DNA from: a virus
Direction: 5' to 3' (one strand)
IMG/VR virus record: IMGVR_UViG_3300008255_000077
Span: 1 to 36,286 of that record
Length of the DNA: 36,286 nt
Shown: positions 23,710 through 36,286 of the stretch, piece by piece
Layout: every line of letters starts with the position of its first letter
Numbering within the stretch: the first letter of the stretch is position 1
Made by a program: the position numbers and the translations under genes
Notes under the pieces: model-generated
The model's database searches: none
Seen by the model: only the letters and a program-made list of their open reading frames with translations
What the model was told of the DNA's origin: nothing

Positions 23710-24067
23710 GCTCTACCATGGTCGGGCCTGGCGTCATGCTGTTGTCGCTGCTGGTATGGTCCTGTTGCAGCTTGTCGCTGTAGCCATGGTTTGCCAGTAG
23801 AAGCTTGACAATGGTGCTGTTCAAGTCACCCTTGAGGCCACCGTTAAGACTGATCCGCTCTTGCAGATGAGCAATCTTGTCTAACGTGCCCAAAAACTCA
23901 GGATGCTTTTCCCAGTTCGATAGGGTGCTACGACTCACATTCAAGTCCAAAGCCAGGCCAGCCCTACTAGGGACAACGTCACCGGCATCGATGAATCCGC
24001 CCTCTGCATAGGCGTCAGCGCGAGCCTGTATTTCTTCGTTGTAGTCGGTTGGCCTAGCCATGGTCAC
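23681..24067 (-). CDS. terminase small subunit
   Basis: 128 aa with an HTH (RAGLALDLNVSRSTLSNWEKH), immediately upstream of the large terminase gene. Confidence 0.7.
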   Translation of the reverse strand: MTMARPTDYNEEIQARADAYAEGGFIDAGDVVPSRAGLALDLNVSRSTLSNWEKHPEFLGTLDKIAHLQERISLNGGLKGDLNSTIVKLLLANHGYSDKLQQDHTSSDNSMTPGPTMVELVGPSEGKP

Positions 24068-24261
24068 GCTTCCCGCTTATTACGACGCCCACGGATCACG
24101 CAGGCCACCGAAATGGCGATCAGCGCGAAAGACACGGAGAGCGCGTTAGGGTCAAGTGATGCGCCTTGGCCGAACGGGAACTTGGCAATCCCGACGATCA
24201 TGAGGATCACGGCCAGCATGTAATAGCGCTTGGTCGGTTGCTTCTTGGTTTGGTTGCTCAT
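24064..24261 (-). CDS. small membrane protein (2 TM), first gene of the structural string
   Basis: 65 aa with two hydrophobic segments. It has a good SD (GAGGTG) and is coupled by ATGA to the small terminase gene. Confidence 0.55.
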   Translation of the reverse strand: MSNQTKKQPTKRYYMLAVILMIVGIAKFPFGQGASLDPNALSVSFALIAISVACVIRGRRNKREA

Positions 24262-24343
24262 AACTCACCTCTGTTATTCACCTGTAAGGATTGCGCCAGG
24301 CCGCAGGTGTTCGGCTTTTCGAGGATCAGTCTAGGCGCAGTTG

Positions 24344-24349
24344 ATTATA
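24344..24349 (-). promoter_or_regulatory. perfect -10 hexamer TATAAT without a canonical -35 (candidate late or activator-dependent promoter)
   Basis: The minus strand reads ...CATTTGCCTTCTGCATAAGGTATAATCAAC. The hexamer at 17-nt spacing is GGGCAT, and TTGCCT lies only 11 nt upstream. Confidence 0.3.
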
Positions 24350-24375
24350 CCTTATGCAGAAGGCAAATGCCCGCT

Positions 24376-24636
24376 CTACGCCTTGCGCGGCAACTCAGTC
24401 AGACGCGCCAGCCCGATATCGTTCATCAAGTCAGCATTGTGGATAAGTCGGCTGATGAGATCTTGCGGCTCCTCGATCCCGGCTCGGACCATGCAGCGAA
24501 TCAACGCAGCATCGGTTGAGTGGTACAGCGGAAGCTTGATTGTTCGGCTTAGGAGCCTAGCCAGCCGATCTTCCTCGGCCATCGCATCACGCTCACGCTG
24601 CTCCTGCTTTCGCTGTGTTGCTGATTTTGCTGTCAT
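24376..24636 (-). CDS. hypothetical protein
   Basis: The start MTAKSATQRK lies 2 nt after the methyltransferase stop. 86 aa with a basic N-terminus. Confidence 0.55.
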   Translation of the reverse strand: MTAKSATQRKQEQRERDAMAEEDRLARLLSRTIKLPLYHSTDAALIRCMVRAGIEEPQDLISRLIHNADLMNDIGLARLTELPRKA

Positions 24637-24638
24637 GG

Positions 24639-25307
24639 TCAAACCCCCTCGCAAGCTATAGGTAATTCCTGGCTGCCTGCATCACCAAATATATCGAGCT
24701 GCCTCGTCTCAAAATCAAAGCGCTTGCAAGCAGCCTGGTAGTAATCCTGGTCAAGCTCGATTCCGACAAATTCAAACCCGGCGTAGTGCGCAGCGATTGC
24801 GCTGGATCCACTGCCTAGGTGCGTGTCTACGATCTTGTCGCCTGGCTTTGCGTAGTTCGACAGCAGCCACTGGTAGAGCTTTACGGGCTTTTGGGTTGGG
24901 TGGATGCGCACGATATCCGCGCCAATAAATCCATCAAAACGGATCGGTGCCTTTTTAATGACATTCAGAAAGCTTGTCCATGCCAGCTCCCCGTCCGCAA
25001 AAGAAACGTCTTTTCCACGCTCCTTGTCCCAGAATATCCAGCCGCCAGTCGACGGCAAGTCAAAATAATTGCCGCCCCATATGATCTGCTTGGATGACAC
25101 CCTGGACAGCTCTGCGAAGTATTCAGGCGTCGGAACGGACAAATCCCACTCCTTTCCCTTTTTCCACTGCTTATCTTTGCCTTTGCCCATCTGCATGTTT
25201 GCCGCATTGATCCCATACGGAGGGTCGACAATCGCCAGCTCAAACGCTTTATCAGGCATGCCGCGCATGTAGTCCATGCAGTCGCCCTGTATCAGTTCAA
25301 TTCCCAC
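24639..25307 (-). CDS. DNA methyltransferase, N6-A/N4-C family, beta-class motif order (orphan)
   Basis: Motif IV (DPPY) lies near the N-terminus, followed by HPTQKPVKLYQWLL and VDTHLGSGSSAIAA (an AdoMet motif I-like element). No partner endonuclease is present. The likely start is GTG 25307, 6 nt after GGAGGA. The ORF opens at TTG 25313. Confidence 0.85.
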   Translation of the reverse strand: MGIELIQGDCMDYMRGMPDKAFELAIVDPPYGINAANMQMGKGKDKQWKKGKEWDLSVPTPEYFAELSRVSSKQIIWGGNYFDLPSTGGWIFWDKERGKDVSFADGELAWTSFLNVIKKAPIRFDGFIGADIVRIHPTQKPVKLYQWLLSNYAKPGDKIVDTHLGSGSSAIAAHYAGFEFVGIELDQDYYQAACKRFDFETRQLDIFGDAGSQELPIACEGV

Positions 25308-25309
25308 GC

Positions 25310-25795
25310 TCAATCCTCCAGATTCGTCGACGGGCCACGCTTGAATGAATGCTCGCGCACAAGCCTGGCAATGTAATTTGGGGCTTTATCCACCGCATCA
25401 GCAATCGATGCTATTTTCATGCCGGTCGCTGCCAGCACCTCGATCCGATCCAGCAGCGCCTGATTCTTCTGCACAGGGCCGGCAAAGGTCAGCCCATACT
25501 CTTTAGTCAGCCTGCCGAGAGCGTGGCGTGTGATGCCCATATGCTCGGCCGCTGCTCGGGCTGGCATGTGGCTCAGCTCCCGCGCCTGCTCTGCCAGGTT
25601 CTCGCGGGTCTTGCGCTGGCGCTCATGGATTTCTTCGGTCGTCTCCGGCAGCCCGGCGATGTCCTTGAACTCTTTGCGGTTCCGGGCCAGGTACAGCGCA
25701 TACCGGCGCGGGTGCTTTTCCGGGTCAAGGTCGGATGCGCAGCCGACTATGGCGCGCTGTTCTTCGTGGCTGGAATATCGTGGTGCTGCGATCAT
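25310..25795 (-). CDS. hypothetical protein with two HTH-like segments
   Basis: 161 aa. Candidate HTH segments are AAAEHMGITRHALGRLTKEYGL and MKIASIADAVDKAPNYIARLVRE. It is coupled by ATGA to the exonuclease gene. Confidence 0.55.
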   Translation of the reverse strand: MIAAPRYSSHEEQRAIVGCASDLDPEKHPRRYALYLARNRKEFKDIAGLPETTEEIHERQRKTRENLAEQARELSHMPARAAAEHMGITRHALGRLTKEYGLTFAGPVQKNQALLDRIEVLAATGMKIASIADAVDKAPNYIARLVREHSFKRGPSTNLED

Positions 25796-26418
25796 TTCTT
25801 CATCCTCTCGCGCATATCTGCTTCAAGTTCGGCCAGTTCAGCCAGGAAGTCGGAGACTCCTTTTTCCATGTCGCGAATTCGAGACTCGTCGCGGTGGTAG
25901 CGGTGGCAAACGTACTGCAACTCCTCCGGTAGTCGGTCGTCAAAACTCACGAAGTCGACCCACTCCAGTTCAGCACACGCCATCTGCGCCATCATCTGCC
26001 ATTCGTATTGCGTGTCATGCTTGCCGGCACGCATCACGGCGATGTGCTGGGCGGTGTTCGGACACTTGATTTCCAGGCCGCCCCGGCCAACTTGCAGAAC
26101 GATCACGCCATCTGGAGAGGCTGCGAAGTTTTGGATCTTCGGGTGCTGGATTAGCCCGACCTCCTCAACCTCGCAGTCTTGCATTAGCTCGTATGCAAGG
26201 CGCGCTGTAGGCTCTAGCTCAGTTCCGCGCGCCATTGCTGCGCTGGTATAGCCTTCCTCCCATGTTCCGGTCAGGCGCTCACACAATAGCTGCATCATGT
26301 AGTTGGTTCGGGTGGCAGATGGTGCGCCTCCGCGACCATTCGACATCACATCCTTGACCTTGCTGGCCGTAACCTGGCCGAGCCTTGCGACTCTCCAGCT
26401 TTCAGTTAGCTGTTCCAT
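25792..26418 (-). CDS. YqaJ-like viral recombinase exonuclease
   Basis: WRVARLGQVTASKVKDVM..., GTELEP.A...Y and GLEIKCP are hallmarks of lambda-Exo/YqaJ-type nucleases. It follows recT. The start MEQLTESW has an SD (GAGG). Confidence 0.85.
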   Translation of the reverse strand: MEQLTESWRVARLGQVTASKVKDVMSNGRGGAPSATRTNYMMQLLCERLTGTWEEGYTSAAMARGTELEPTARLAYELMQDCEVEEVGLIQHPKIQNFAASPDGVIVLQVGRGGLEIKCPNTAQHIAVMRAGKHDTQYEWQMMAQMACAELEWVDFVSFDDRLPEELQYVCHRYHRDESRIRDMEKGVSDFLAELAELEADMRERMKK

Positions 26419-27322
26419 TTCCGACCTCGCCTTCAATCGGTTCTTGTTGTTCGGACAGAGTAGCCTTGCGCTGCTCTACGGCCTTCTTTAGCGCCGCGAA
26501 CGCATGAACGTCCCTAGCTGCCTGCATCTCTGCCTTGCCGGCCAGCCATACACCTTGCAGGGCCTCCAGTGATTCACTGTTCACTACCTGGGTAATCCAC
26601 TTATCCGCCAGATCACCGCCAGGCTGTGCGCCGGCCATGGTCGCCAAGCCTTCGCCGCTGTCCGTGTTCAAGTGGTGAATGGCCTTGTCCAGCCGCTCGG
26701 TCTTCGGCCAATACTTGTAGGCCCGCTTCACGACGGTCTTTTTCGCCATCTCGCCATAGTCCGTTTTCCATGGCGACGACTTGCCAGACTTGACCGACTG
26801 CGAGCGGTTCATGATGCCGTCGATATCCTCCCGACTCATGCAAGTGGTTAGGTAGTCACCGTCGGCAGTCTTGACCACCACGTAACAGCCGACCACTTCG
26901 CCGCGATCCTTGGCGAACGGGTTGTAAGTGTGTGTCGGCGGGCGGTCAAATCCGTTAAGCGCGAACGCATCAGCCGCATAAACCAGCTCGGCCTGTGCCC
27001 ATCGAATCGATCCTGTGGCCATGGCCAGATCCATCAGCCCCATATAGCTGATATCCAGGCAGATGCGGCCATCGCGCGGCACCAGATACGCCTGGCGCTT
27101 TGCCGGGTTAAGGCTGATACCAATGGCCGCGATGTTGGTAACGGCGTTGACGACCGACTGCCGGTTGCTCATGGCCATCTTGGCGGCGTAGTCGTTGCTA
27201 TGGAAAGTCTGCAAGGCAAAACCGGCCTCACGCTCGAAATTCAAAGCCGGATCGGTCAGCACGGAGGCGAACGAATTACGCGCGCCGTAGATGTCCTGCT
27301 CGATGATTGCGATGTTTGACAT
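26402..27322 (-). CDS. recT: RecT-family single-strand annealing protein
   Basis: GISLNPAKRQAYLVPRDG...DISYMGLMDLA...VVKRAYKYWPK is RecT-like. I chose the ATG at 27322 (MSNIAIIEQD). Confidence 0.9.
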   Translation of the reverse strand: MSNIAIIEQDIYGARNSFASVLTDPALNFEREAGFALQTFHSNDYAAKMAMSNRQSVVNAVTNIAAIGISLNPAKRQAYLVPRDGRICLDISYMGLMDLAMATGSIRWAQAELVYAADAFALNGFDRPPTHTYNPFAKDRGEVVGCYVVVKTADGDYLTTCMSREDIDGIMNRSQSVKSGKSSPWKTDYGEMAKKTVVKRAYKYWPKTERLDKAIHHLNTDSGEGLATMAGAQPGGDLADKWITQVVNSESLEALQGVWLAGKAEMQAARDVHAFAALKKAVEQRKATLSEQQEPIEGEVGNGTAN

Positions 27323-27331
27323 GGTCAACCC

Positions 27332-28480
27332 CTAGTAAGAAATGGAAATGCGCGGAACACTGCCGGAAGCGATCAGCTTAACGACTGCCTTGGCTTGCTC
27401 TTCGCTGATGCCAGATTTCATGATTGCCTCTTTTGCCGCCTTGAGAACTGCGCCTTTATGCGCGCGGTCTTTCTCGCGGGCGTCGGCTTCGCGCTGAATG
27501 CGGGCCTGTTCGTCAGCCTGGCGCTGTCGCTCGGCTTGCTCGGCACGCTCTACAGCTTCGGCCTGGCGCTGCTCTGCGGCTACCCGATCAAGCTCTGCCT
27601 GCTTCTCTGCTGCAATGCGGCGCTGCTCGGCCAGCTCAGCATTCAACCGCGCCTGCTCTGCTGCTGCGGCTGCGTCTCGCTTGTCCTGTTCAGCCTGGCG
27701 CTGTGCCTGGGCTGCCTGTTCGATCAACTCAGCCTCTCGCCGCTTGGCTGCCGCCTCAGCCTCTGCGGCTTCGCGGGCCACGTTCTCCCGGTAGGCCTGG
27801 GCGCGCTGCTCGGCTTCGCGGGTGGCACGCTCAGCAGCCTCTTGTGCGATGCGGTCGCGTTCGGCCTTGGCGTCGCGCTCGGCCTGCTCTGCCTGGAACT
27901 TGGCGATGGCCGCCAGCTCGGCTTCGTGCTTATCGCGGATCACCAGGGCTTCACGCAATGCGGTCAGCGCTTTGTCTTTGGTGCGCGCCGCCTCGGCTTC
28001 GAACTCTTCCCAGCTCTGGTCAATTACAATGCCTTCAATGCAGGCGATGCTGGCTTTCAGTTCGGCCCCGTCAAGGTCGCGGCACTCAAGGCGCAGCTTC
28101 ATGTAATCAATATTTGCTTGATGGCGAGCAACACGCGCCGCCTCGTCGGCCTCCCATGCGGTCAGCGGTGCACGAACTTCTGCCTGCCAGGCGTCCAGAA
28201 GATCACGCATGCGCTTGCGCTCGGCGTCGATCTTCTTTGGCACTTCCTTCAGCTCGGCTACAAGGTCTTTGCCGACATTGTCCAGAGCCGTCTTTGACCG
28301 TGCGATCTTGTAGGCGATAGACCGGATTGCGTCCTGGCCTTTCTTCGTGGCCACGTCCGGCACGAAGCAGTCAATCTCTGCGCGGATCTTTGCCAGGTAC
28401 GGGTCAAGACCTTGCTCGGCGCTGAACACCTGCAAGGCGTTTTCTTTTTGAACGGTTACGACTTCGGTTGTGCTGGTCAT
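27332..28480 (-). CDS. DUF1351-like protein with a long A/E/Q/R coiled-coil insert
   Basis: 382 aa upstream of recT, a position where DUF1351 proteins occur in other phages as I remember. About 170 aa are low-complexity (AEQAERDAKAERDRIAQEAAERATREAEQRAQ...). The SD GAGGA lies 7 nt before the ATG. Confidence 0.65.
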   Translation of the reverse strand: MTSTTEVVTVQKENALQVFSAEQGLDPYLAKIRAEIDCFVPDVATKKGQDAIRSIAYKIARSKTALDNVGKDLVAELKEVPKKIDAERKRMRDLLDAWQAEVRAPLTAWEADEAARVARHQANIDYMKLRLECRDLDGAELKASIACIEGIVIDQSWEEFEAEAARTKDKALTALREALVIRDKHEAELAAIAKFQAEQAERDAKAERDRIAQEAAERATREAEQRAQAYRENVAREAAEAEAAAKRREAELIEQAAQAQRQAEQDKRDAAAAAEQARLNAELAEQRRIAAEKQAELDRVAAEQRQAEAVERAEQAERQRQADEQARIQREADAREKDRAHKGAVLKAAKEAIMKSGISEEQAKAVVKLIASGSVPRISISY

Positions 28481-28518
28481 TCGTCGATCCTCTGTGTGGT
28501 TTGCCTTTCTCTAGGCAA

Positions 28519-28650
28519 TAAAAAACGCTTTAGGGATTCCCGGTGAGAAACCTTGCTGGCCTGGATCGACGGCGGTCAGCCAACAAGGTACGGGAATCTC
28601 TAAAGCGTTCTGCTGCCGTCGATCCATTACAATGAGTTCTCACACCCACG
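28519..28650 (-). ncRNA. candidate structured RNA of about 130 nt (small RNA or attenuator leader)
   Basis: The interval runs from the predicted start site to the U-tract of the hairpin. The ends are predicted, not measured. Confidence 0.35.
28520..28609 (-). terminator. intrinsic terminator-like compound hairpin plus U-tract
   Basis: On the minus RNA, AACGCUUUAGAGAUUCCCG (28609-28591) pairs with CGGGAAUCCCUAAAGCGUU (28542-28524): 19 bp with one A.C mismatch. An inner 11-bp stem (28589-28579 with 28560-28550) has one G.U. UUUUAUU (28523-28517) follows. Confidence 0.55.
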
Positions 28651-28655
28651 ACGCC

Positions 28656-28683
28656 ATTATGGCCGATCCAATACAGCCGTCAA
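28656..28683 (-). promoter_or_regulatory. sigma70-type promoter TTGACG-N16-CATAAT
   Basis: Read on the minus strand: -35 at 28683-28678 and -10 at 28661-28656. It shares the TTGACG -35 hexamer with the promoters at 31133 and 33717. Confidence 0.45.
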
Positions 28684-28700
28684 CCTGTGCTTTCATACAG

Positions 28701-28967
28701 TTACCGCGACCGCATCCAGAACCCAGCATCGACAGCAGCGTCCTTCCCATGCTCACCGACCAGGCTAGCCAGGAGCTGCGCCATAACCGTCTGCGCCTGT
28801 TGCCTTGTGATCGGCTGATTGCTGCGCCATGCTCGGGTGTCCTTCTCGCCATCGGGAAGCACGATCCAGATTTCGCCGTGCCAGATAACCGGCTTCTTAG
28901 GCACGCTGCGCGCGTTGTCGACGACTGGCGGGCCATCCATCCCGTTGTTCCACTGGACTAGGCTCAT
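28701..28967 (-). CDS. hypothetical protein
   Basis: 88 aa, coupled by ATGA to the upstream gene. Its composition is protein-like, unlike the two overlapping alternative ORFs. Confidence 0.6.
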   Translation of the reverse strand: MSLVQWNNGMDGPPVVDNARSVPKKPVIWHGEIWIVLPDGEKDTRAWRSNQPITRQQAQTVMAQLLASLVGEHGKDAAVDAGFWMRSR

Positions 28968-29206
28968 TTCGGCGGCTCCGGAAGCGGCTGCCAGTGGGTG
29001 ATCTTGTATCCGTACTTGTGACTTAGCTCAAAAAAACCAGAATCCTTGCCAAGATACTTCCGCGAATAGGATGAACCATGGCGACGGTGGCTTTCTCGGT
29101 GAACACTGTAAAACGTCTTATCAACATTACCGCCCTCGCAAGCTACTAGAACGTATCCGTGCTCGAAATCCGGCATCCGATCACTGCACTTGATCCACTC
29201 GCTCAT
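28964..29206 (-). CDS. DUF551-like protein
   Basis: The pattern EWIKCSDRMPD...YVLV...THWQPLPEPP is the DUF551 signature as I remember it. Confidence 0.65.
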   Translation of the reverse strand: MSEWIKCSDRMPDFEHGYVLVACEGGNVDKTFYSVHRESHRRHGSSYSRKYLGKDSGFFELSHKYGYKITHWQPLPEPPK

Positions 29207-29418
29207 TTCGCTTCCCCTTCCCGCTTCATAACCTCAATCACATTGACCATGTTGCTCTGCAAACGCCTTACCACGCGGCGAAGCATTAGGCAGCGGTCAA
29301 TGGTGCGGTGCCACAGATCAGCCTCGATGGTGTCGCACAGCTCGATCACGCCTACCCTGCACACTATCAGGTAGTAGAGCGGCTGGCGGGTGCAGTGCCA
29401 TTCGATTTTGTCTGTCAT
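29203..29418 (-). CDS. hypothetical protein
   Basis: 71 aa, with ATGA coupling at both ends. Confidence 0.55.
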   Translation of the reverse strand: MTDKIEWHCTRQPLYYLIVCRVGVIELCDTIEADLWHRTIDRCLMLRRVVRRLQSNMVNVIEVMKREGEAK

Positions 29419-29744
29419 GGCATGGCCTCCCCGATTGCAGCGGCTGCGCGGACGATGGCGCGGCGGGTGAAGGCGCTCCAGTCATCGCCTGCGTGCTTTT
29501 CTCTGGCAACGATTTCTTTCTGCCCTCGCCATGCGTGAGCGCTTGACCGCCTGAAGCTAACTTCAAGCGTCATTCGGCACACAACGGCCAGCCGCATCGC
29601 CTCACCATCGTCATCCAGCGGATTGAACTCTTCGCGGCCAACCTCCTCCTCGCACCGGTAGTAGCACCCGGAGTTGCGAACCCACTCGATTTTATACCCT
29701 GCCGCCCGCGCCGCCATCTCCAACAATTCGCGATCAGTCTTCAT
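29415..29744 (-). CDS. hypothetical protein (NinX/DUF2591-like N-terminus)
   Basis: MKTDRELLEMAARAAGYKIEW...FNPLDDDGEAMRLAV resembles that family as I remember it. Confidence 0.55.
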   Translation of the reverse strand: MKTDRELLEMAARAAGYKIEWVRNSGCYYRCEEEVGREEFNPLDDDGEAMRLAVVCRMTLEVSFRRSSAHAWRGQKEIVAREKHAGDDWSAFTRRAIVRAAAAIGEAMP

Positions 29745-29851
29745 GGCGCCACCACTTCAGCCAGGGCCGACGCAAAGATCCAGATAGACCCCAGGAAGCA
29801 CGCGCAGTAGAAGCACGTCGACAGGCGGGGCAGGGTGATTTTTATGGTCAT
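29741..29851 (-). CDS. 36-aa hydrophobic peptide (below the ORF-track cutoff)
   Basis: My own translation is MTIKITLPRLSTCFYCACFLGSIWIFASALAEVVAP. Its ATG overlaps the upstream stop (ATGA) and its stop overlaps the downstream ATG (ATGA), so it exactly fills the gap between two genes. Confidence 0.5.
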   Translation of the reverse strand: MTIKITLPRLSTCFYCACFLGSIWIFASALAEVVAP

Positions 29852-30204
29852 TGTGCGGCCTCCATGGCTGCGTCGATGGCGGAGTCTACATGCTCCGGAG
29901 TGCCGGCATGATTCCATCTGACCCCAATCTCAATGACAATCCCTAGTTCGTGGCAGTTTGTACCGTAGATCGAGAACCAATTTTCACGCAGCCACTGATA
30001 CCGCTCCGCATCCTTCCTGAACACCTCGCAGTTCTCCGCAGTCACCCCAGCCGCGACAATCTGTTGCTTCAGGTCTGCGATGTGGGCGAGCAGGGCTGCC
30101 AGCATCGGCCCCGGCAGAGTGCACGACTCAGCATAAGCCGGTGCTCCGACTTCTAGCTCAGCCAGCAGTTCGTCAGTGATGCTCATCACAGGTGATGTGG
30201 TCAT
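29848..30204 (-). CDS. hypothetical protein
   Basis: The internal start MTTSPVMSI is coupled by ATGA to the upstream stop at 30201. Confidence 0.55.
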   Translation of the reverse strand: MTTSPVMSITDELLAELEVGAPAYAESCTLPGPMLAALLAHIADLKQQIVAAGVTAENCEVFRKDAERYQWLRENWFSIYGTNCHELGIVIEIGVRWNHAGTPEHVDSAIDAAMEAAQ

Positions 30205-30479
30205 GCTTTGTACTCCAGGCACTTCAGCTTGCCGATCCGATCCAGTAGGCCATTAATGCGAAGCTGCGAATCGGCGCGCTCATCAACAACCTGTTTTTCC
30301 AGGCTCTCGATCATCGCCTCTCTCGGGTCTTTGTCGATGTCCTCATATGTGCCAATAACCGTTATCTCGCCAAGGCAGGCGCCGCAGTTGTACTTGCTCA
30401 TATCCGAAGCGTACAGCTCTCGGCTCCCGTCAGCATCGACATGCAGATACATTTTCAATTCAACCGATACAGTGGCCAT
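30201..30479 (-). CDS. hypothetical protein
   Basis: 92-aa ORF in the early-left string. Confidence 0.55.
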   Translation of the reverse strand: MATVSVELKMYLHVDADGSRELYASDMSKYNCGACLGEITVIGTYEDIDKDPREAMIESLEKQVVDERADSQLRINGLLDRIGKLKCLEYKA

Positions 30480-30483
30480 GGTT

Positions 30484-30831
30484 TCAGTCTCTCCCCTGGT
30501 TCAATTCACGGTTAAGGTCAGCCAGCAGCAATGCGTTGTACTCTGCGTCATCGTCGATTCGCTGAGCCTTGCTGCTGACAAACGGCTTACGCTGGGCTTC
30601 AATGTGGCGCTCGATTTTGGCAAGTGCCTCGCCTAGCTCTGGTGCGTGGCGCAAGCAAGAGCACATGACCTTTTGCCAATCCTCACGACCCGTCTCGATC
30701 ACCGCCAGGCACAGCGACTCAATCAGCGGGTTCATGTCCGCCGCGACGTACTCCGCGTATGCCTCAAGCGTTGGCTCGTGCCCTTCGTCCAGGGCTACGG
30801 TTACGGCGCCTTCAATCTCTGCCAGGGTCAT
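30484..30831 (-). CDS. hypothetical protein
   Basis: The internal start MTLAEIEG is coupled by ATGA to the upstream stop at 30828. Confidence 0.55.
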   Translation of the reverse strand: MTLAEIEGAVTVALDEGHEPTLEAYAEYVAADMNPLIESLCLAVIETGREDWQKVMCSCLRHAPELGEALAKIERHIEAQRKPFVSSKAQRIDDDAEYNALLLADLNRELNQGRD

Positions 30832-31061
30832 TTGGCACGCTCCGCAAGCATGGCGTCGGCGATACGATAGGCGTCCCGCGCAGCTCGCTCGATTTCGCAC
30901 TCATACCGATATGCCTCGTAGCCAGTCACGCACGCAGCAAGCGCCTTAGCCGCGAAGTAGTCACGAAGGCTCATGCCAGGCTCTGCATAGGCCACGATAT
31001 CGACGTTGTGGACGGTCACTTCGTTAGCCGGAAACGCCGGCCCGCCATTGTCTTTGCTCAT
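30828..31061 (-). CDS. hypothetical protein (first early-left gene)
   Basis: 77 aa. GGPAFP...GMSLRDYFAAKAL is a recurrent small phage-protein pattern. The SD GAGGGAG lies upstream. Confidence 0.6.
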   Translation of the reverse strand: MSKDNGGPAFPANEVTVHNVDIVAYAEPGMSLRDYFAAKALAACVTGYEAYRYECEIERAARDAYRIADAMLAERAK

Positions 31062-31104
31062 GCTGAATCACTCCCTCTATTGGTTGTTCGTTTCGTTGAG
31101 CCGA

Positions 31105-31133
31105 ACTTTAGGCTGTTCTTTATAGTGCGTCAA
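31105..31133 (-). promoter_or_regulatory. leftward early promoter TTGACG-N17-TAAAGT
   Basis: Read on the minus strand: -35 at 31133-31128 and -10 at 31110-31105, about 40 nt upstream of the first leftward gene. Confidence 0.5.
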
Positions 31134-31138
31134 GCACT
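31124..31138. promoter_or_regulatory. 15-bp palindromic operator candidate AGTGC-N5-GCACT
   Basis: A perfect 5-bp inverted repeat that overlaps the leftward -35 and touches the rightward -35. Confidence 0.45.
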
Positions 31139-31165
31139 TGCTTAATCTATTTTTAAGCTTATGAT
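31138..31165 (+). promoter_or_regulatory. rightward early promoter TTGCTT-N16-TATGAT
   Basis: Read on the plus strand. It lies back to back with the leftward promoter, about 28 nt upstream of the Cro-like ATG region. Confidence 0.5.
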
Positions 31166-31192
31166 TGGCGGAACATAAACCGGAGCGTGACT

Positions 31193-31402
31193 ATGAACAC
31201 CAAAGAGACTATCGAGTTTTTCGGCAGCCCAACGAACCTGGCAGAAGCAATCGGCATAACCATCCAGGCAGTCCACCAATGGAAGGACACCGTGCCTTTA
31301 GGCCGTCGCGACTCGGTTCGCCAGGCAATGAAGGTTCGCGCGGACAAGCTAATTCTTGAGGCGCGCGGCCTGCGGAAGGCAGCCAAGACGGGTGGAAAAT
31401 GA
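31193..31402 (+). CDS. Cro/YdaS-like HTH regulator
   Basis: 69 aa. The HTH is GSPTNLAEAIGITIQAVHQWK. GGAG lies 7 nt upstream of ATG 31193. It is the first rightward gene. Confidence 0.7.
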   Translation: MNTKETIEFFGSPTNLAEAIGITIQAVHQWKDTVPLGRRDSVRQAMKVRADKLILEARGLRKAAKTGGK

Positions 31403-31950
31403 CCACGGAAAAGCGTGAGTCATTCACCAAAAAAAAGCGGTTCGACATTTTCAAGCGCGACGGCTTCCGGTGCCAATACTGCGGATCTTCTCCGCCTGAG
31501 GTTGTGCTTGAGATAGACCACATTCACCCGATATCAAAGGGCGGAACAAACACAATCGACAACCTGCTGACCGCTTGCTTCGACTGTAACCGCGGGAAAT
31601 CAAACGGGCTGCTTGAGGTCGCGCCAGAATCAATTGCAGATAAGGCCGAAAAGCTCGCGGAAAAGCGCGAGCAACTGAAGGCGTATGAGAGGCTGCAAAA
31701 GTCAATCCGAAAAGAACAGGATAAGCAGATAGACGAGCTGCAAGAGATTATGCGCAGCCACCACCCCGGAAAGGTTTTTAGCGATAAATTCAAGCTAGAC
31801 ATTCGCCGTCAGTTTATGCCGAGGCTGGCATTTTTCCATATACGGGAAGCCATGGAGCAGGCAATGGTCAGGGCGAGGCAAGGCGGGTGCGAGGGCGCAG
31901 TAAAGTACTTTTGCGGCATATGCTGGAAGGTCATCAGGGGGTCTGAATGA
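31399..31950 (+). CDS. HNH endonuclease with helical C-terminal extension
   Basis: CQYCG...EIDHIHPISKGGTNTIDNLLTACFDCNRGK is a canonical HNH core. It has ATGA coupling on both sides. Confidence 0.85.
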   Translation: MTTEKRESFTKKKRFDIFKRDGFRCQYCGSSPPEVVLEIDHIHPISKGGTNTIDNLLTACFDCNRGKSNGLLEVAPESIADKAEKLAEKREQLKAYERLQKSIRKEQDKQIDELQEIMRSHHPGKVFSDKFKLDIRRQFMPRLAFFHIREAMEQAMVRARQGGCEGAVKYFCGICWKVIRGSE

Positions 31951-32747
31951 ACTACTACGCCTTCCACCTGGGCGACTACGCAAGCGCGACTGGCCACCTT
32001 ACATGGGATGAGGACATGGCCTATCGCCGCCTGATCGATGTCTATTACCAGAAAGAGGCTCCGCTTCCAGATGACATGCGGCAGGTGTACAGGCTTGCTC
32101 GTGCACAGACTGACGAGCACAGACAGGCAATCAATACGGTGCTTTCTGAGTTCTTCGAGCTAACCGATGAAGGGTGGCGTCACTTCCGATGCGATGCCGA
32201 AATACAGGCAATTTCCGGCAAGCGTGAAAAGGCATCGCAAAGCGCCAAGGCTCGATGGAGCAAAGCCAAATCACTGCCAACGCAATGCGAAGGCAATGCG
32301 AACGCATCGAATAATGAATGCGAACGCATGGAAAACGAATGCGAACGCAATGCTCCCAACCCCAACCCCAACCCCAACCCCAACCAAGAGCAAAACAATA
32401 CGGCCAAACCTGAAAAGCCGGAGCGCGCAAAAAATGTGACGGCTTCCGATCTGGCTGGAATGGGGGTAAACGAACAGCACGCTAAAGACTGGCTAGCCGT
32501 CCGAAAGCAGAAGAAGGCCCCGCTAACACCGACGGCCATGGCCGCTACCAAGCGAGAGGCCGACAAGGCTGGTCTGTCGATACCGGAGGCAATCAGGATC
32601 GCAGCAGAAAGCGGATGGGCTGGATTCAAGGCGGAATGGGTGAAGGGCGGGAAAGCAGGCAAGCCGGCAGGCATACACCACGGCTTTGACGATATCGACT
32701 ACAACGCGGGGCTAGTGCTCCGAGAGGATGGCACGCATGGACTCTAA
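31947..32747 (+). CDS. replication protein (DUF1376/YdaU-like N-domain, DnaT-like C-domain)
   Basis: The N-terminus MNYYAFHLGDYASATGHLTWDEDMAYRRLIDVYY is the DUF1376 pattern. The C-terminal part (QHAKDWLAVRKQKKAPLT...GWAGFKAEW) is separated from it by a repeat-encoded linker. The gene lies upstream of the DnaC-like loader. Confidence 0.75.
   Translation: MNYYAFHLGDYASATGHLTWDEDMAYRRLIDVYYQKEAPLPDDMRQVYRLARAQTDEHRQAINTVLSEFFELTDEGWRHFRCDAEIQAISGKREKASQSAKARWSKAKSLPTQCEGNANASNNECERMENECERNAPNPNPNPNPNQEQNNTAKPEKPERAKNVTASDLAGMGVNEQHAKDWLAVRKQKKAPLTPTAMAATKREADKAGLSIPEAIRIAAESGWAGFKAEWVKGGKAGKPAGIHHGFDDIDYNAGLVLREDGTHGL
32284..32349. repeat. four 12-bp iterons AATGCGAA(C/G)GCA at 32284, 32295, 32317, 32338
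   Basis: Three copies are perfect and one has a single mismatch. The spacings are 11, 22 and 21 bp. Each contains the dyad TGCG-AA-CGCA. Confidence 0.6.
32355..32384. repeat. hexanucleotide tandem repeat (CCCAAC x5, i.e. C4A2 units)
   Basis: Read directly from the sequence. It encodes PNPNPNPNPN in the replication protein linker. The complementary strand is (T2G4)n. Confidence 0.9.
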
Positions 32748-33519
32748 CCAAGACGTTCAAATCTCGACCGCCGTATGCGAAAAGCACGGAGAGTTTGAAC
32801 AGAAATCTTTCCAAATTCCGATGTTCAAGAAGCGCACCTGCTCACGGTGCCCGACTTGTGAGGCCGAGCAGAAGGCCGAAGAGGACAAGCGCCAGCGCAT
32901 GCAAGACGACTTTATTCGCCAGATCCGCTTACGTGAAAAGCTCGGGTCAGCGGCCGTGCCCAAGCGGTTTGATGGCAAGCGGTTTGATGGATACCTGTGC
33001 GACTCCCCGGAGAAGTCGGCGGCGCTGGAGAAGTGCAAGGCCTTCGTCGACAACTTCAAGGACAACTTTTCGGTCGGGCGAAACCTGATCTTGATCGGCA
33101 CGCCAGGTACAGGCAAGACGCACCTCGGAACCTCGATTGCCAACCATCTGAACCACAACACTGGATACACGGCTGCTTATCGCACGATTGGAGGCGTTCT
33201 ACAGGCCATTAAAGAGACGTTTAACGGCGACGGCAGCGAGAGTGAGGGCGGAATCATTGCGGGCCTCACAGGCGTTGATCTGCTCGTTCTGGACGAAATA
33301 GGGGCAACACGGGAAACGCCAAGCGATTTCGAGCTGTCGACCATCTTCGCCATCATCAACGGCCGATACGAAAGCGAGCTGCCTACCGTGATCATTTCCA
33401 ACCTGTCAGCCGAGGCGCTGACCCAGGCCATGGGTGATCGTTGCGTGGATCGGCTGCGCGAGGGTTCGCCGGTAGTGGTTCAGTTCAAATGGGAATCAGC
33501 GCGCCGGGGTATCGCATGA
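32737..33519 (+). CDS. DnaC/IstB-like AAA+ helicase loader
   Basis: Walker A (GTPGTGKTH) and Walker B (LLVLDEIG) motifs are present. I prefer the start at ATG 32737 because of its SD (GAGAGGA). The ORF opens at 32728. Confidence 0.85.
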   Translation: MDSNQDVQISTAVCEKHGEFEQKSFQIPMFKKRTCSRCPTCEAEQKAEEDKRQRMQDDFIRQIRLREKLGSAAVPKRFDGKRFDGYLCDSPEKSAALEKCKAFVDNFKDNFSVGRNLILIGTPGTGKTHLGTSIANHLNHNTGYTAAYRTIGGVLQAIKETFNGDGSESEGGIIAGLTGVDLLVLDEIGATRETPSDFELSTIFAIINGRYESELPTVIISNLSAEALTQAMGDRCVDRLREGSPVVVQFKWESARRGIA

Positions 33520-33728
33520 ACTGGTCGCGCTCATCCGCCTACTTGATGGCTGGCGAACACGGTTACAAGGTCGCCAAGTTCCTGGTAGGCGACCAGTCGC
33601 AATATCGGGCAAGCCTTGGCGGGCGGTTCCTGGGTCAAGTGCAGGAGTCGGCCGAAGATGCCTGCCAGGTGTGCGAGTCGCATTTTCAAATCATGGGTGA
33701 AGAGATTGCTGATGAGTTGACGCCCTGA
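33516..33728 (+). CDS. hypothetical protein
   Basis: The internal start MNWSRSS is coupled by ATGA to the loader stop. Confidence 0.55.
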   Translation: MNWSRSSAYLMAGEHGYKVAKFLVGDQSQYRASLGGRFLGQVQESAEDACQVCESHFQIMGEEIADELTP

Positions 33729-33745
33729 CAATCAATGCCTATATT
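33717..33745 (+). promoter_or_regulatory. internal sigma70-type promoter TTGACG-N17-TATATT with overlapping inverted repeat GACAAT-N10-ATTGTC
   Basis: The hexamers and spacing were read directly. The inverted repeat (33727-33732 and 33743-33748) covers the -10. Confidence 0.55.
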
Positions 33746-33776
33746 GTCGGTACGCAAACAAAGCAGGGGGTCAGGA

Positions 33777-33929
33777 ATGACACGGGCAAAGCGCGATATA
33801 CGAATGAGCAACGAAGAGTGGGAGGCCTTCAAGCGCCTGCTTGGGCCTACCTGGCTTCGGTCAGCAATCAACCGGGCTATCAAGAAGGACCTGCGCCAAG
33901 CGAAGGCGGCAGAGGGGGAATCGAAATGA
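33777..33929 (+). CDS. small basic protein, ribbon-helix-helix-like regulator candidate
   Basis: The sequence is MTRAKRDIRMSNEEWEAFKRLLG.... AGGGGG lies 7 nt upstream of ATG 33777. It is the first gene after the internal promoter. Confidence 0.5.
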   Translation: MTRAKRDIRMSNEEWEAFKRLLGPTWLRSAINRAIKKDLRQAKAAEGESK

Positions 33930-34246
33930 GCGAATCGATGCGGGGCGAGTTTGAGGCGTGGAGGGTTGACAACTTCTGCGGAGGAATTGAGCGGCTGAAG
34001 AAATGCAGTAATGCTCCGGAAGTGTACTACTACACGGCAGAACAAGATGCCTGGCGGGCGTGGAAAGCCTCGCGCGCTGCGTTGTGTGTGGAGTTGCCTC
34101 CTAGTGTGGATATGCCGGACGAAGACGATTGTGATGGATATGAAGAGTACGAGGCAATGGAGGCTATAACCTGCACGGCTAACGGAATGCGTCACGCCTG
34201 CCGAAACGCCATCCACGCCGCAGGAGTAAAGACCAATGAGCGATAA
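33926..34246 (+). CDS. hypothetical protein
   Basis: The internal start MSESMRGEFEAW is coupled by ATGA to the upstream stop. Confidence 0.55.
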   Translation: MSESMRGEFEAWRVDNFCGGIERLKKCSNAPEVYYYTAEQDAWRAWKASRAALCVELPPSVDMPDEDDCDGYEEYEAMEAITCTANGMRHACRNAIHAAGVKTNER

Positions 34247-34739
34247 GACTGGTTTCGGAATTGACTGGAACAAAGCACCTATCGATGCTACGCATTACGA
34301 CGTGGACAGCCATCTGTTTGTAAATTTCGACTGCATGCACGATAGCTTGAGAAGCCTAGTTCCGCGCCCCGCCACTCCCTCAGCATGGGATGGCACCGGA
34401 CTGCCCCCGGTTGGAACGGTTTGTGAGCTTAGGACTAAGGTCGGCGGCTGGGGTGAGGCTGTAATTAAGTACCAGGCCAAGCGCGGAATCTGTGTATGGC
34501 TTTGGGTTCGCCTTGATGGAAATAGCGAGCAGATTGAGTGGGCTGAATCGCCGGACAAGCTTGAATTCCGCCCCATCAAAACCGCCGAGCAACTGGCTGC
34601 CGAAGATCGGGAGCGTGTAACTGATGAGATGTACGGCCACACCAAAACAAAGATGACCGCAGCCGAGGTTGATATCCAGCGCGAGACATGCGCAGACCTC
34701 TATGACGCCGGCTACCGCAAGCAGGGGCCAGCCAAATGA
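34236..34739 (+). CDS. hypothetical protein
   Basis: 167-aa ORF. The C-terminal pattern FRPIKTAEQLAAEDRE....LYDAGYRK recurs in prophage proteins. Confidence 0.6.
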   Translation: MSDKTGFGIDWNKAPIDATHYDVDSHLFVNFDCMHDSLRSLVPRPATPSAWDGTGLPPVGTVCELRTKVGGWGEAVIKYQAKRGICVWLWVRLDGNSEQIEWAESPDKLEFRPIKTAEQLAAEDRERVTDEMYGHTKTKMTAAEVDIQRETCADLYDAGYRKQGPAK

Positions 34740-34909
34740 CCAGCGACCGCGAACCCTACAAGCGCAAAGGCGACGGTATGGACCTGCCGGAAGGGAAAAC
34801 GTGCGGCGATTGCGCGCATGTTAGGCGCTGCATGTTGATCTATGGCCACATCAAGGCCGACGAGCCGTGTGACTGGTATCCGATCAAGTTTCAGGAGTCG
34901 GTGAAATGA
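34736..34909 (+). CDS. 57-aa Cys-rich protein (below the ORF-track cutoff)
   Basis: My own translation is MTSDREPYKRKGDGMDLPEGKTCGDCAHVRRCMLIYGHIKADEPCDWYPIKFQESVK. It has ATGA coupling at both ends and a CxxC...C...C pattern. Confidence 0.5.
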   Translation: MTSDREPYKRKGDGMDLPEGKTCGDCAHVRRCMLIYGHIKADEPCDWYPIKFQESVK

Positions 34910-35157
34910 CCAAGCACAGCCACTACCACAAGGACGTGTCGAATCTCAAAAGCGTCGACGTTTACCAGGTGTGCGCACTGTTTGACGTGCAAGACCCCAG
35001 CGGGGCCACACAGCACGCCGTGAAGAAGATCCTATGCCCTGGCCAGCGTGGAGGCGGCAAGTCGCTCAGACAGGACTTGCAGGAGGCCGTGGATAGCCTG
35101 AACCGCCGCATTCAGATGATTGATGAGGATTTGTCGATGGGTGGCGAGGATGGTTGA
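34906..35157 (+). CDS. hypothetical protein (DUF3310-like)
   Basis: The pattern HYHKD....VDVYQV...F.....HAVKKIL..GQRGGGKSLRQDLQEA resembles DUF3310 as I remember it. Confidence 0.5.
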   Translation: MTKHSHYHKDVSNLKSVDVYQVCALFDVQDPSGATQHAVKKILCPGQRGGGKSLRQDLQEAVDSLNRRIQMIDEDLSMGGEDG

Positions 35158-36255: not shown

Positions 36256-36286
36256 GCCTGATCAAGCGCTTTGAGCGCAACACGGC
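36164..36286. repeat. terminal direct repeat copy 2 (identical to 1-123)
   Basis: See copy 1. The phosphatase-like CDS starts here at GTG 36252 and continues at window position 89. Confidence 0.95.

Follow-up and report, generated by a model that had tools for sequence, protein, structure and literature searches.

The longest non-coding gap in the phage DNA analyzed here lies immediately upstream of the genes for a DUF1351-like protein, RecT and an exonuclease, raising the question of whether it acts as a transcriptional control region, as the gene for a small RNA, or as a set of binding sites on the DNA. Below, all coordinates refer to the window, i.e., the whole 36,286-nt stretch of viral DNA.

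A predicted promoter, structured leader and terminator in one gap

Positions 28481-28700 form the longest uncovered stretch of the window when every same-strand ORF of at least 45 aa is counted as coding, a definition under which the original prediction that this is the largest non-coding gap holds. The promoter, motifs A to C, compound hairpin, T-run and small hairpin it had described on the minus strand were all found, as follows.

28656..28683, minus strand: sigma70-like promoter, with TTGACG (28683-28678), a 16-nt spacer and the -10 hexamer CATAAT (28661-28656)
28661..28675, minus strand: partial fourth motif copy D, TGTATTGGATCGGCC, in the promoter spacer (11 of 12 repeat positions identical)
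28647-28645 with 28636-28634, minus strand: P0, a 3-bp stem (GGG/CUC) whose loop is formed by the P1 5' arm
28637..28643, minus strand: P1 5' arm, GUGAGAA, pairing with 28549-28543 (7 bp)
28615..28626, minus strand: motif A, 5' strand of P2, UGGAUCGACGGC, pairing with B
28591..28609, minus strand: T 5' arm of the outer terminator stem, AACGCUUUAGAGAUUCCCG, pairing with 28542-28524
28579..28589, minus strand: I 5' arm of the inner stem, pairing with 28560-28550
28562..28573, minus strand: motif B, GCCGUCGAUCCA, which forms the 3' side of P2 and, in the terminator fold, falls within the apical loop of 16 nt
28550..28560, minus strand: I 3' arm, pairing with 28589-28579
28543..28549, minus strand: P1 3' arm, UUCUCAC, an unpaired bulge between inner and outer stems in the terminator fold
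28524..28542, minus strand: T 3' arm, CGGGAAUCCCUAAAGCGUU, pairing with 28609-28591
28515..28523, minus strand: U-run, UUUUAUUGC, adjoining the stem; an RNA of ~130 nt is predicted to end here
28501..28518, minus strand: small 6-bp hairpin, UUGCCU/AGGCAA, in the window phage only
28482..28490, minus strand: motif C, GGAUCGACG, complementary to B; overlaps the DUF1351-like gene's Shine-Dalgarno
27332..28480, minus strand: first downstream gene (382 aa; ATG at 28480-28478), called DUF1351-like in the original prediction

P0, P1 and motif copy D had previously been overlooked. Copy D is similar to TGTAATGGATCGACGGC, which corresponds to the flank of A plus A, and no counterpart was seen when the promoter spacers of the relatives described below were read, D being confined to the window phage. 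The window contains four copies of GGATCGACG where 0.44 would be expected, a count attained in 2 of 100 shuffles; three of these copies fall inside 145 nt, and the minus strand of the gap has three.

The TTGACG-N16-CATAAT promoter scores 10/12 and is the joint best sigma70-like match in 24000-36286, a region in which the total of such sites (6 versus 4.7 expected) is not over chance. From its position, transcription is predicted to start near 28649; no obvious -10-like pause element was seen. The 382-aa gene is followed by those for RecT, a YqaJ exonuclease and a methyltransferase. No Pfam family is shown for the 382-aa protein in the gene list, the DUF1351 label coming from the original prediction, and its homologues in Pseudomonas phages are annotated as "TolA protein" or hypothetical.

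A family of homologous leaders with variable downstream genes

BLAST searches of the gap against phage and plasmid collections left the gap itself unmatched. The exact 17-mer of the outer stem had zero matches in viral contigs and 54 in GTDB genomes, a chance-level number of which none extended. Homologues were obtained by BLAST and by three collection scans with DNA patterns, one built on A and B, one on P1 alone and one on P1 plus the adjoining loop, with a covariance-model check of the matches. About 30 distinct sequences were recovered, from viral and metagenome contigs and the Pseudomonas syringae phages Orisa01-03; they share the leader with its several helices, preceded at constant spacing by a promoter and followed by a U-run, and differ in the gene downstream. 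In Orisa01 (PP179329) the element occupies 36562-36715 on the minus strand. The core of the original prediction, a promoter followed by a structured RNA of ~130 nt, an intrinsic terminator and a long operon, gains strong support from the conservation of the module, with compensatory changes, in about 30 relatives.

The covariance model gave 50 to 172 bits for forward-strand members, except for the divergent L004 (30 bits), and 21 to 30 bits on the reverse strand. The lower reverse-strand scores, together with the many G.U pairs and the presence of the U-run on one strand, indicate a strand-specific structure. A comparable promoter was found in 36 of the 38 member sequences listed, the end of its -10 hexamer lying 12 to 17 nt before the P1 5' arm, and one further promoter (TTTACA-17-TATAAA) was read by eye in L246. 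The promoter spacers differ between subfamilies and none is conserved family-wide. According to the covariance model the window has a single copy of the element, while two loci of the family carry a second, divergently oriented copy, the two copies differing in P1 and P2.

Of 80 loci with a gene homologous to that for the 382-aa protein, none resembled the gap by BLAST and only one, L004, was recognized as a member by the covariance model. Since the element was found at only one of these 80 loci, it is not tied to the gene for the 382-aa protein. Clustering of the ORFs of all member loci identified no universal neighbor protein; the variable downstream genes and the lack of a conserved neighbor fit a self-contained RNA device. 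The Rfam match that the original prediction had named as refuting was not found: the gap (E up to 10) gave only a meaningless plant microRNA match (E = 5.4), and ten member loci (E up to 1) no relevant match. Nor was a described equivalent in Pseudomonas phages found in the literature.

A predicted compound terminator, conserved in the family

The first fold (T) comprises an outer stem of 19 bp with one A.C mismatch and an inner stem (I) of 11 bp including one G.U pair. On the minus strand the hairpin is followed by a T-run at 28523-28517, and the U-run plus the final two U's of the stem reads GCGUUUUUUAUU. The 178-nt RNA folds with -66.7 kcal/mol (z = -4.19), and none of 200 shuffles folds as well. 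In the RNAalifold consensus the terminator has 42 pairs, 23 of them with compensatory changes. The U-run follows the stem in all members, on one strand only, so that an intrinsic terminator is kept between the promoter and the downstream gene throughout the family, the position expected of an attenuator. The distance from the U-run to the ATG is about 12 to 25 nt in the relatives; an extra 25 nt with the small hairpin is peculiar to the window phage.

A second, covarying fold interleaved with the terminator

Motifs A and B form the 12-bp helix P2, which together with P0 and P1 makes up a competing fold (AT). All three pairs of P0 covary (GC, CG, AU and UA types), 95.8% of the cells being paired. 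P1 is 100% paired with compensatory changes in five of its seven pairs, and in the second copies it reads GUCGAAA/UUUCGAC and GUAGUAG/CUACUAC. The complementarity of P2 is kept in relatives that have unrelated sequences there, in at least nine versions, every one of them complementary. Taken together, P0, P1 and P2 are 98.2% paired with compensatory changes in 17 of 21 pairs, in an alignment built for the terminator fold, the competing fold having played no part in it; 0 of 500 shuffles reach the observed values, and slid controls are only 18 to 46% paired. An alternative structure is therefore under selection.

These data modify the original prediction in several respects. The A:B pairing it proposed is a real, covarying helix, best read as part of a terminator-competing hairpin (P1 plus P2) instead of a pseudoknot atop the terminator. 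The compensatory changes it proposed to look for in the relatives are seen in the stems and in A and B. Motif C has no equivalent close to the start codon of any relative, and the idea that B:C pairing occludes the Shine-Dalgarno does not survive as a general feature. Neither does the triple GGATCGACG motif as such, because the relatives have unrelated sequences at the same helix. To judge from the at least nine unrelated but complementary versions of P2, GGATCGACGGC is one variant of a helix and not a protein site.

Within a class, P2 is unusually constant. Among the 12 members matching the P1-only search pattern, 1 of 22 columns was variable in P2 versus 27 of 71 in T and I. This roughly 10-fold-higher sequence conservation suggests a sequence-specific third partner, although part of it may come from the mode of sequence collection or the recent spread of one cassette. 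Cognate P2 duplexes were ~10 kcal/mol better than non-cognate ones, with regions that overlapped other helices; the support for P2 is taken from the P0/P1/P2 covariation test and not from duplex energies. A UUGA (U-turn, YUNR) precedes B in most members, not all, and was not counted as evidence for pairing in trans.

Folding path and proposed switch

When member transcripts were ended after the P1 3' arm, P1 was present in the lowest-energy fold in 27 of 29 sequences. P2 was also present in these P1-bearing folds except in L299 and L004, in which the truncated lowest-energy fold keeps P1 and the inner hairpin is favored over P2. In the window, P2 is predicted once B has emerged, and AT has the lowest energy as long as any of the T 3' arm is still to be made; at full length T wins, with -52.7 versus -41.5 kcal/mol for AT.

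On balance, and with moderate confidence, we read the gap as a transcription attenuator of new architecture, on the computational basis of covariation and predicted folding; the module probably sets the amount of transcription that reaches the downstream early genes. The gap would be an autonomous transcription unit in which a sigma70-type promoter starts the RNA about 5 to 10 nt before the leader, the order of elements being P0, P1 5' arm, A, T 5' arm, I 5' arm, B, I 3' arm, P1 3' arm, T 3' arm and U-run. The leader would adopt either of two folds whose helices are interleaved with zero shared nucleotides. Fold T, the compound intrinsic terminator with its 19- and 11-bp stems, would release the ~130-nt RNA. 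In fold AT, P1 (7 bp, stacked on P0) and P2 (12 bp) would combine into a long irregular hairpin whose apical loop encloses the terminator's 5' arms; the terminator would then be kept from completion, and RNA polymerase would continue into the genes for the DUF1351-like protein, RecT and the exonuclease. How much read-through occurs would depend on the balance between T and AT. The most economical candidate for the third partner would be the terminated RNA itself, B pairing in trans with A on nascent transcripts; in the window phage, B might also pair with C at the Shine-Dalgarno.

We infer the mutual exclusivity of the two folds, the modulation of termination and the direction of any regulation. 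Because the folds share no nucleotides, exclusivity of AT with the full terminator is a steric and topological argument and not one of direct competition: the inner hairpin's apical loop supplies a strand of P2, and the linkers are just 1 to 5 nt long. A loop-bulge pseudoknot in which P1 forms alongside the terminator is conceivable in principle. Read-through by kinetic trapping is a prediction from folding energies, from which real kinetics may differ. As to a sensing input, the members have no conserved leader ORF, neighbor protein or invariant ligand-like core. Leader-peptide attenuation was considered and rejected, as the 38-aa ORF that starts at an ATG inside motif A has no counterpart in the relatives, the ATG being found only in the window.

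Relation to known attenuators

With classical terminator/antiterminator leaders the element shares a promoter-proximal leader, an intrinsic terminator just before the gene and a conserved alternative fold, predicted to be the earlier of the two to form during transcription. It differs from them in that its folds share no nucleotides, its helices being interleaved and involving no strand displacement, and in having no apparent leader peptide, ligand core, tRNA or protein sensor. The nearest precedent for the former property is provided by the "tug-of-war" riboswitches (Bushhouse, Fu and Lucks, 10.64898/2026.06.17.733018), in which a ligand-stabilized antitermination structure lies wholly upstream of the terminator. 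There too the antitermination structure does not overlap the terminator sequence, but each competing helix of the present element has one of its strands within the terminator hairpin, and nothing points to a ligand.

If the two folds do compete, the element would represent natural control of transcription by an antiterminator and a terminator without shared nucleotides, excluded from each other by interleaved topology alone. Such a design lies outside the textbook strand-displacement model; published cases are so far confined to upstream structures abutting the terminator. Competition would also make the element a portable module of promoter, switch and terminator in Pseudomonas phages and related temperate-type phages with no recognizable N or Q, whose early regulation is poorly understood. 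With about 30 distinct sequences and covariation support for five helices, it is a candidate new RNA family for Rfam.

Trans-acting small RNA

An unlikely alternative, which overlaps the attenuator reading and does not exclude it, is that the locus is primarily the gene for a trans-acting small RNA. The 130-nt terminated RNA would be the product, with B, and possibly the free 5' region, pairing with targets; read-through would be secondary or itself the regulated target. In the manner of P4 CI RNA or IsrK, the RNA would force termination through the nascent A of its own operon and, in the window, block translation through C. A promoter of its own precedes the RNA, a stable terminator hairpin and U-tail close it, and B is presented in a 16-nt loop atop a stem of ~30 bp. 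P2 behaves as would a specificity determinant, near-invariant within a class and wholly different between classes, and differs along with P1 between the two copies of one genome. A purely trans role, however, leaves unexplained both the covarying P1 helix and the interleaving of the terminator arms with A and B; no target was found outside the element, and the C-like target is conserved in no relative.

In the window, the A-B-C layout is that of P4 seqA-CI-seqC (PMC4825925). As with P4 CI RNA and the c4 RNAs of P1 and P7, a short stable RNA is located in the leader of the operon it would control, with a complementary upstream site (A), a downstream one (C) at the ribosome-binding site in the window phage only, and complementarity that differs by class with compensating changes. 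The element departs from these systems in that its downstream site is missing from the relatives, its 3' end would come from intrinsic termination and not from processing, and A pairs with B in cis as well; the covariance models of Rfam for C4 and IsrK/SeqA, like those for other families, give no match. Salmonella Gifsy-1 IsrK is a precedent in that one promoter gives rise to both a terminated short RNA and a read-through mRNA, with alternative structures deciding activity. IsrK, however, acts in trans on the translation of its long isoform and has no sequence or model similarity to the element.

A further reading, speculative and in our estimate rather improbable, is a protein-free cassette composed only of RNA, in which B of the terminated RNA would pair with nascent A in trans, prevent the competing hairpin and force termination. 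It would amount to a feedback/immunity circuit like that of P4 CI RNA in Pseudomonas-type phages, the class-specific P2 sequences serving as addresses and C adding a translational arm in the window phage. It would also explain why P2 is conserved within a class, unrelated between classes and different between the copies of one genome.

Antiterminator proteins, put-like RNA and other readings

The comparisons with lambda PR'/6S RNA/tR' and with put RNA suggested in the original prediction are analogies only. A PR'-like promoter with a proximal terminator, overcome by an unrecognized DNA-loaded antiterminator of the Q, 21 Q or AlpA type and yielding a 6S-like RNA as by-product, is improbable as an account of the locus. 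The layout does resemble that of lambda PR'-6S RNA-tR'/Q and Pseudomonas aeruginosa AlpA-alpB-tB: a strong promoter and an intrinsic terminator within about 55 to 200 nt, ahead of a long co-directional operon, with a short terminated RNA as the default product. Three small unannotated ORFs at 495-1317, after the NinG and NinI-like genes, occupy the position of Q in lambda, AlpA shows that such proteins may lack similarity to Q (PMC7969949), and D lies between the -35 and -10 hexamers, the site of the Q and AlpA binding elements. Yet Pfam and PHROG scans of the early and nin-region proteins recognized no Q-, N- or AlpA-like protein, in agreement with what had been noted before; no protein co-occurs with the element, and no conserved binding element was found within the promoters, the spacers varying across the family and D being present in the window only. 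Moreover, a Q-type mechanism leaves the selection for the P0, P1 and P2 helices unexplained, a conserved alternative fold being needless in those systems.

Still less probable is a put-like RNA, in which nascent P0/P1/P2 would bind RNA polymerase and make it resistant to its own and later terminators without any protein. As at HK022 putL (PMC9378689), structure begins a few nucleotides after the start of transcription from an early promoter; two loci have one copy per divergent operon, comparable to putL and putR, no antiterminator protein was found, and the downstream operon is long. The put RNA, however, is a two-stem, V-shaped RNA of ~70 nt with conserved RNA polymerase contacts that acts on distant terminators (PMC9378689), whereas here a leader of ~130 nt forms either a ~86-nt terminator or, interleaved with it, a single long hairpin. 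The freely varying helix sequences and few invariant unpaired nucleotides argue against a conserved polymerase-binding surface, and a constitutive antiterminator joined to a conserved terminator would have no obvious purpose.

We also consider it very unlikely that the P1/P2 hairpin is the small-molecule aptamer of a riboswitch. A 5' leader with alternative antiterminator and terminator structures would suit one, and the tug-of-war riboswitches supply a precedent for non-overlapping antitermination (bioRxiv 10.64898/2026.06.17.733018), but there is no Rfam match, the downstream genes are functionally heterogeneous rather than of one class, and in place of a conserved ligand core there are few invariant unpaired nucleotides and poorly conserved internal loops, GAAGCAAA being found in one subfamily only.

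Least credible is a role at the DNA level, with A, B, C and D as operators or with A and C as the 9-bp target duplication of a palindromic mobile insertion: despite four GATC-containing copies within 200 bp (one inside the promoter), exact 9-bp direct repeats at A and C, 135 bp apart, and the unusual conservation of the P2 sequence within a class, the structure is strand specific, with G.U pairs and a one-sided U-run, the A/B sequence is replaced entirely in relatives with its complementarity kept, which disposes of protein-binding sites as the main explanation, and the insertion is contradicted by the single copy in the window, by the absence of C (and D) from all relatives, and by the location of A, a strand of a covarying internal helix, inside the conserved module and not at its edge. 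The genome-wide 17-mer scan, with chance matches only, likewise led us to reject the palindromic insertion.

Returning to the attenuator, a possible separate late promoter lies at about 24345, and with this candidate the element need not gate the late genes.

A predicted promoter-leader-terminator module in the largest noncoding gap

The gap separating an 88-aa ORF from the 382-aa gene originally labeled DUF1351-like is indeed the longest noncoding stretch, even with every same-strand ORF of at least 45 aa taken as coding. All the features that the original prediction had listed for it are present on the minus strand.

Features of the gap (all minus strand)
28703-28701 to 28480: gap, from the stop codon of the 88-aa ORF to the ATG of the 382-aa gene
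28683-28656: predicted promoter TTGACG-N16-CATAAT, sigma70-like score 10/12
28647-28645 with 28636-28634: helix P0
28643-28637 with 28549-28543: helix P1
28626-28615 with 28573-28562: motifs A and B, helix P2
Compound hairpin: outer stem (T) of 19 bp with one A.C mismatch, inner stem (I) of 11 bp, then GCGUUUUUUAUU
28523-28515: U-run
28490-28482: motif C, at the Shine-Dalgarno

The promoter is the joint best sigma70-like match within 24000-36286, a region where the total of such sites is not above chance. The window has four occurrences of GGATCGACG versus 0.44 expected, three of them inside 145 nt. For the 178-nt RNA, the predicted folding energy is -66.7 kcal/mol (z = -4.19). A repeat search added two features absent from the original list: a partial fourth motif copy in the promoter spacer and a 32-nt imperfect inverted repeat (28646-28615 versus 28573-28542), in which A:B pairing is combined with another helix, GUGAGAA/UUCUCAC.

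Related elements in other viral genomes

No match to the gap turned up in Rfam, in phage and plasmid collections, or in the upstream regions of 80 loci encoding homologues of the 382-aa protein that follows it. When viral contigs were scanned with the pattern GGATCGACG-N30-60-CGTCGATCC, most matches were due to chance, and 19 loci were clearly homologous across the whole element. Each of the 19 has a sigma70-like promoter followed after ~10 nt by a structured leader and U-run and, ~15 nt past the latter, a Shine-Dalgarno with the ATG of the following gene, which varies by locus. With two of these loci as BLAST queries, the element was located in the Pseudomonas syringae phages Orisa01-03, where it lies in an unannotated gap within the leftward early operon, with small ORFs on one side and recombination/repair/methylase genes on the other. 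The TerL of the window is nearest to those of Aeromonas and Pseudomonas phages. A covariance model was built to avoid the bias of A/B-based searching, and scans with P1 alone or P1 plus the adjoining loop, checked with this model, gave additional members; the sample rests on exact-match pattern scans and may not represent the true diversity or host range. Despite differing upstream genes, 36 of the 38 listed member sequences have a promoter with 12-17 nt between the end of its -10 and P1.

Two conserved and probably mutually exclusive folds

RNAalifold recovered the terminator fold from 13 nonredundant members; of its 42 pairs, 23 show compensatory changes. The promoter-leader-terminator module originally proposed is kept among relatives. 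The alternative fold comprises P0 (3 bp, closing a loop formed by the P1 5' arm), P1 (7 bp), and P2 (A:B). Its pairs were tallied over 33 aligned model hits; since that alignment was fitted to the terminator structure, it is unbiased towards the alternative. P0, P1, and P2 were paired in 98.2% of cells, with both-sided changes in 17 of 21 pairs, values reached by 0 of 500 shuffles; slid controls were only 18-46% paired. P2 is the clearest case of covariation, with at least nine versions at the homologous position, all complementary.

Versions of helix P2
1: GGAUCGACGGC/GCCGUCGAUCC
2: UUGGACUGAGGCU/AGCCUCAGUCCAA
3: GAUCGGCAGC/GCUGCCGAUC
4: GAUCAGCGGCA/UGCCGCUGAUC
5: GACAAAUGCCGGGG/CCCCGGCUUUGUC
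6: GACCAAUAGCCGGGAA/UUCCCGGCUUGGUC
7: GAUACGCUGGC/GCCAGCGUAUC
8: UAUCGACA/UGUCGAUA
9: UGGAUCGAGGG/CCCUCGAUCCA

The P1 5' arm is wholly replaced too (GUGAGAC, GUGGAAC, GUUAGAC, UUGAGAC, GUCGAAA, GUAGUAG), the 3' arm matching each. Since pairing is kept while sequence is replaced, the motif first noticed is one sequence version of a helix: the predicted A:B pairing stands as the covarying P2, whereas the motif as a conserved word does not, relatives having unrelated sequences in its place. G.U pairs are common, only one of the strands has a U-run after the stem, and covariance-model scores were 21-30 bits on the reverse strand versus 50-172 bits for forward-strand members, except for one relative, L004 (30 bits). 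The structure is thus specific to one strand.

The order in the RNA is P0, P1-5', A, T-5', I-5', B, I-3', P1-3', T-3', U-run, because of which the terminator (T, I) and competing (P1, P2) folds use disjoint nucleotides in interleaved helices. Their geometry suggests that P2 is incompatible both with the inner hairpin, B being its loop with linkers of only 1-5 nt, and with the complete outer stem, A being tethered ~5 nt from the base of a 30-bp hairpin. P1 and the terminator might coexist as a P0 loop/bulge pseudoknot. According to minimum-free-energy folds of growing transcripts, P2 of the window RNA is predicted to form once B is out, and P1+P2 to remain the best fold until the T 3' arm is fully out, the predicted energies then being -52.7 kcal/mol for the terminator versus -41.5 for P1+P2. 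When members were cut past the P1 3' arm, P1 was in the lowest-energy fold of 27 of 29 sequences, all of these except L004 and a second relative, L299, also having P2. Such predicted energies have the layout expected of a kinetically controlled switch.

Candidate inputs and comparison with known systems

No conserved leader ORF was found among members, no protein is always encoded beside the element among member loci, and no window early or nin-region protein matched the Q, N, or AlpA families. Since, in addition, few unpaired nucleotides are invariant, a ligand or dedicated protein is not indicated. Among 12 distinct members fitting the P1-only search pattern, variable columns numbered 1/22 in P2, 27/71 in the T and I stems, and 16/32 in unpaired positions; from class to class, P2 is entirely different in sequence. 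Near-constancy within a class and replacement between classes point to an extra partner, a pattern like that of specificity determinants in antisense systems. The terminated RNA would display B in a 16-nt loop atop a long stem; pairing in trans between this B and the A of a nascent transcript might then favor termination. In the window phage only, motif C at the Shine-Dalgarno would be another possible target of B. Such pairing would resemble the seqA-CI-seqC logic of phage P4 (summarized in PMC4825925).

Functionally closest are terminator/antiterminator leaders; unlike these, the element has no strand common to both folds and no recognized sensor. Antitermination without sequence overlap is also known from "tug-of-war" riboswitches (bioRxiv 10.64898/2026.06.17.733018), in which, however, the ligand-bound structure lies wholly upstream of the terminator. 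P4 CI, P1 c4, and IsrK are likewise leader-encoded RNAs with complementary sites, with no Rfam model match for the element. The put RNAs, two stems of ~70 nt with conserved RNA polymerase contacts (PMC9378689), share the position just after a promoter and the occasional presence of two copies per genome. The promoter and terminator arrangement also occurs in the lambda Q and AlpA systems, which depend on a protein and do without an alternative RNA fold (PMC7969949). On this comparison, the element would be filed as a transcription-attenuating leader RNA, absent from Rfam 15 and from the literature searched.

A portable module

Two relatives have the element twice, once in each of two divergent operons, the copies being 8-11 kb apart.

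Second element copies
Locus L188, 12708-12860, +
Locus L177, 8446-8597, +

These copies differ in P1 (GUCGAAA, GUAGUAG) and P2 (UGGAUCGAGGG), and the genes that follow were read, by their first residues alone, as Rha-like for one copy and DUF551-like for the other. In a further locus, L198, the element (~3434-3587, minus strand) lies downstream of a homologue of the 382-aa gene and precedes a gene with an HNH-like-looking N terminus, then a recombinase-like gene. Because of these different neighbors, the module is portable and tied to no single gene; it may move together with mobile endonuclease genes. The window element resembles the L188 and L177 second copies in the stretch TGTAATGGATCGA. 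In the subfamily typified by locus L164, the first gene past the element begins with a GVGINDA motif.

Genome context

The window, from a Logan assembly, is a circularly permuted genome of ~36 kb, cut near or inside the NinI-like phosphatase gene (1-577 and 36256-36286); ORF 89-577 matches only the C-terminal half of the profile, and its own C terminus looks frameshifted.

Genes and sites around the element
Rightward genes: cro-like, HNH, DUF1376, DnaC-like, NinB, NinG, NinI-like phosphatase, three unassigned small ORFs
31399-31950, +: HNH endonuclease gene, right after cro-like, at the head of the rightward operon with DUF1376 and DnaC-like (presumed replication functions)
495-1317: the three small ORFs following the NinI-like ORF
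31133-31105: leftward early promoter
Leftward genes: small ORFs, element, DUF1351-like, RecT, YqaJ exonuclease, methylase, TerS, TerL, structural genes, lysis genes
24262-24375, minus: second largest noncoding gap
~24350-24345, minus: perfect -10 TATAAT with poor -35, before a 65-aa ORF (24064-24261) and then terminase genes including the small subunit

In lambda, the Q gene occupies the position corresponding to the three small ORFs. The TATAAT site may be an activator-dependent late promoter; as the late genes may have a promoter of their own, the element need not be a late switch. Within 31040-31400, a stretch of ~100-130 bp lies between the divergently oriented cro-like gene and a 77-aa gene. 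No CI-type repressor or integrase was recognized among the window genes, and the phage may be virulent or have a noncanonical immunity system.

Features confined to the window phage

Motif C, the small hairpin at 28518-28501 together with 25 additional nt ahead of the ATG, and the partial copy in the promoter spacer have no counterpart in any relative. The predicted overlap of motif C with the Shine-Dalgarno therefore holds for the window and is not a general feature. Since simple counting puts a chance 9-mer within ~20 nt of the start codon at roughly 1 in 10,000, motif C is probably functional or a recent duplication, outside the family. The spacer copy is an A-like fragment, TGTATTGGATCGGCC (28661-28675, minus strand), and a B-flank-like fragment, ATCCAGGCCAG, lies in the promoter spacer of the L188 second copy (~12690-12705). 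Such P2-arm-like fragments could have been left by duplication or by recombination between cassettes, or they may serve as functional sites. Several more A-like matches of 8-9 nt, weakly enriched, are spread over the same strand of the window, and the fourth exact GGATCGACG lies at 20846-20854 on the minus strand, in the A/C orientation, within a 290-aa ORF of the structural region.
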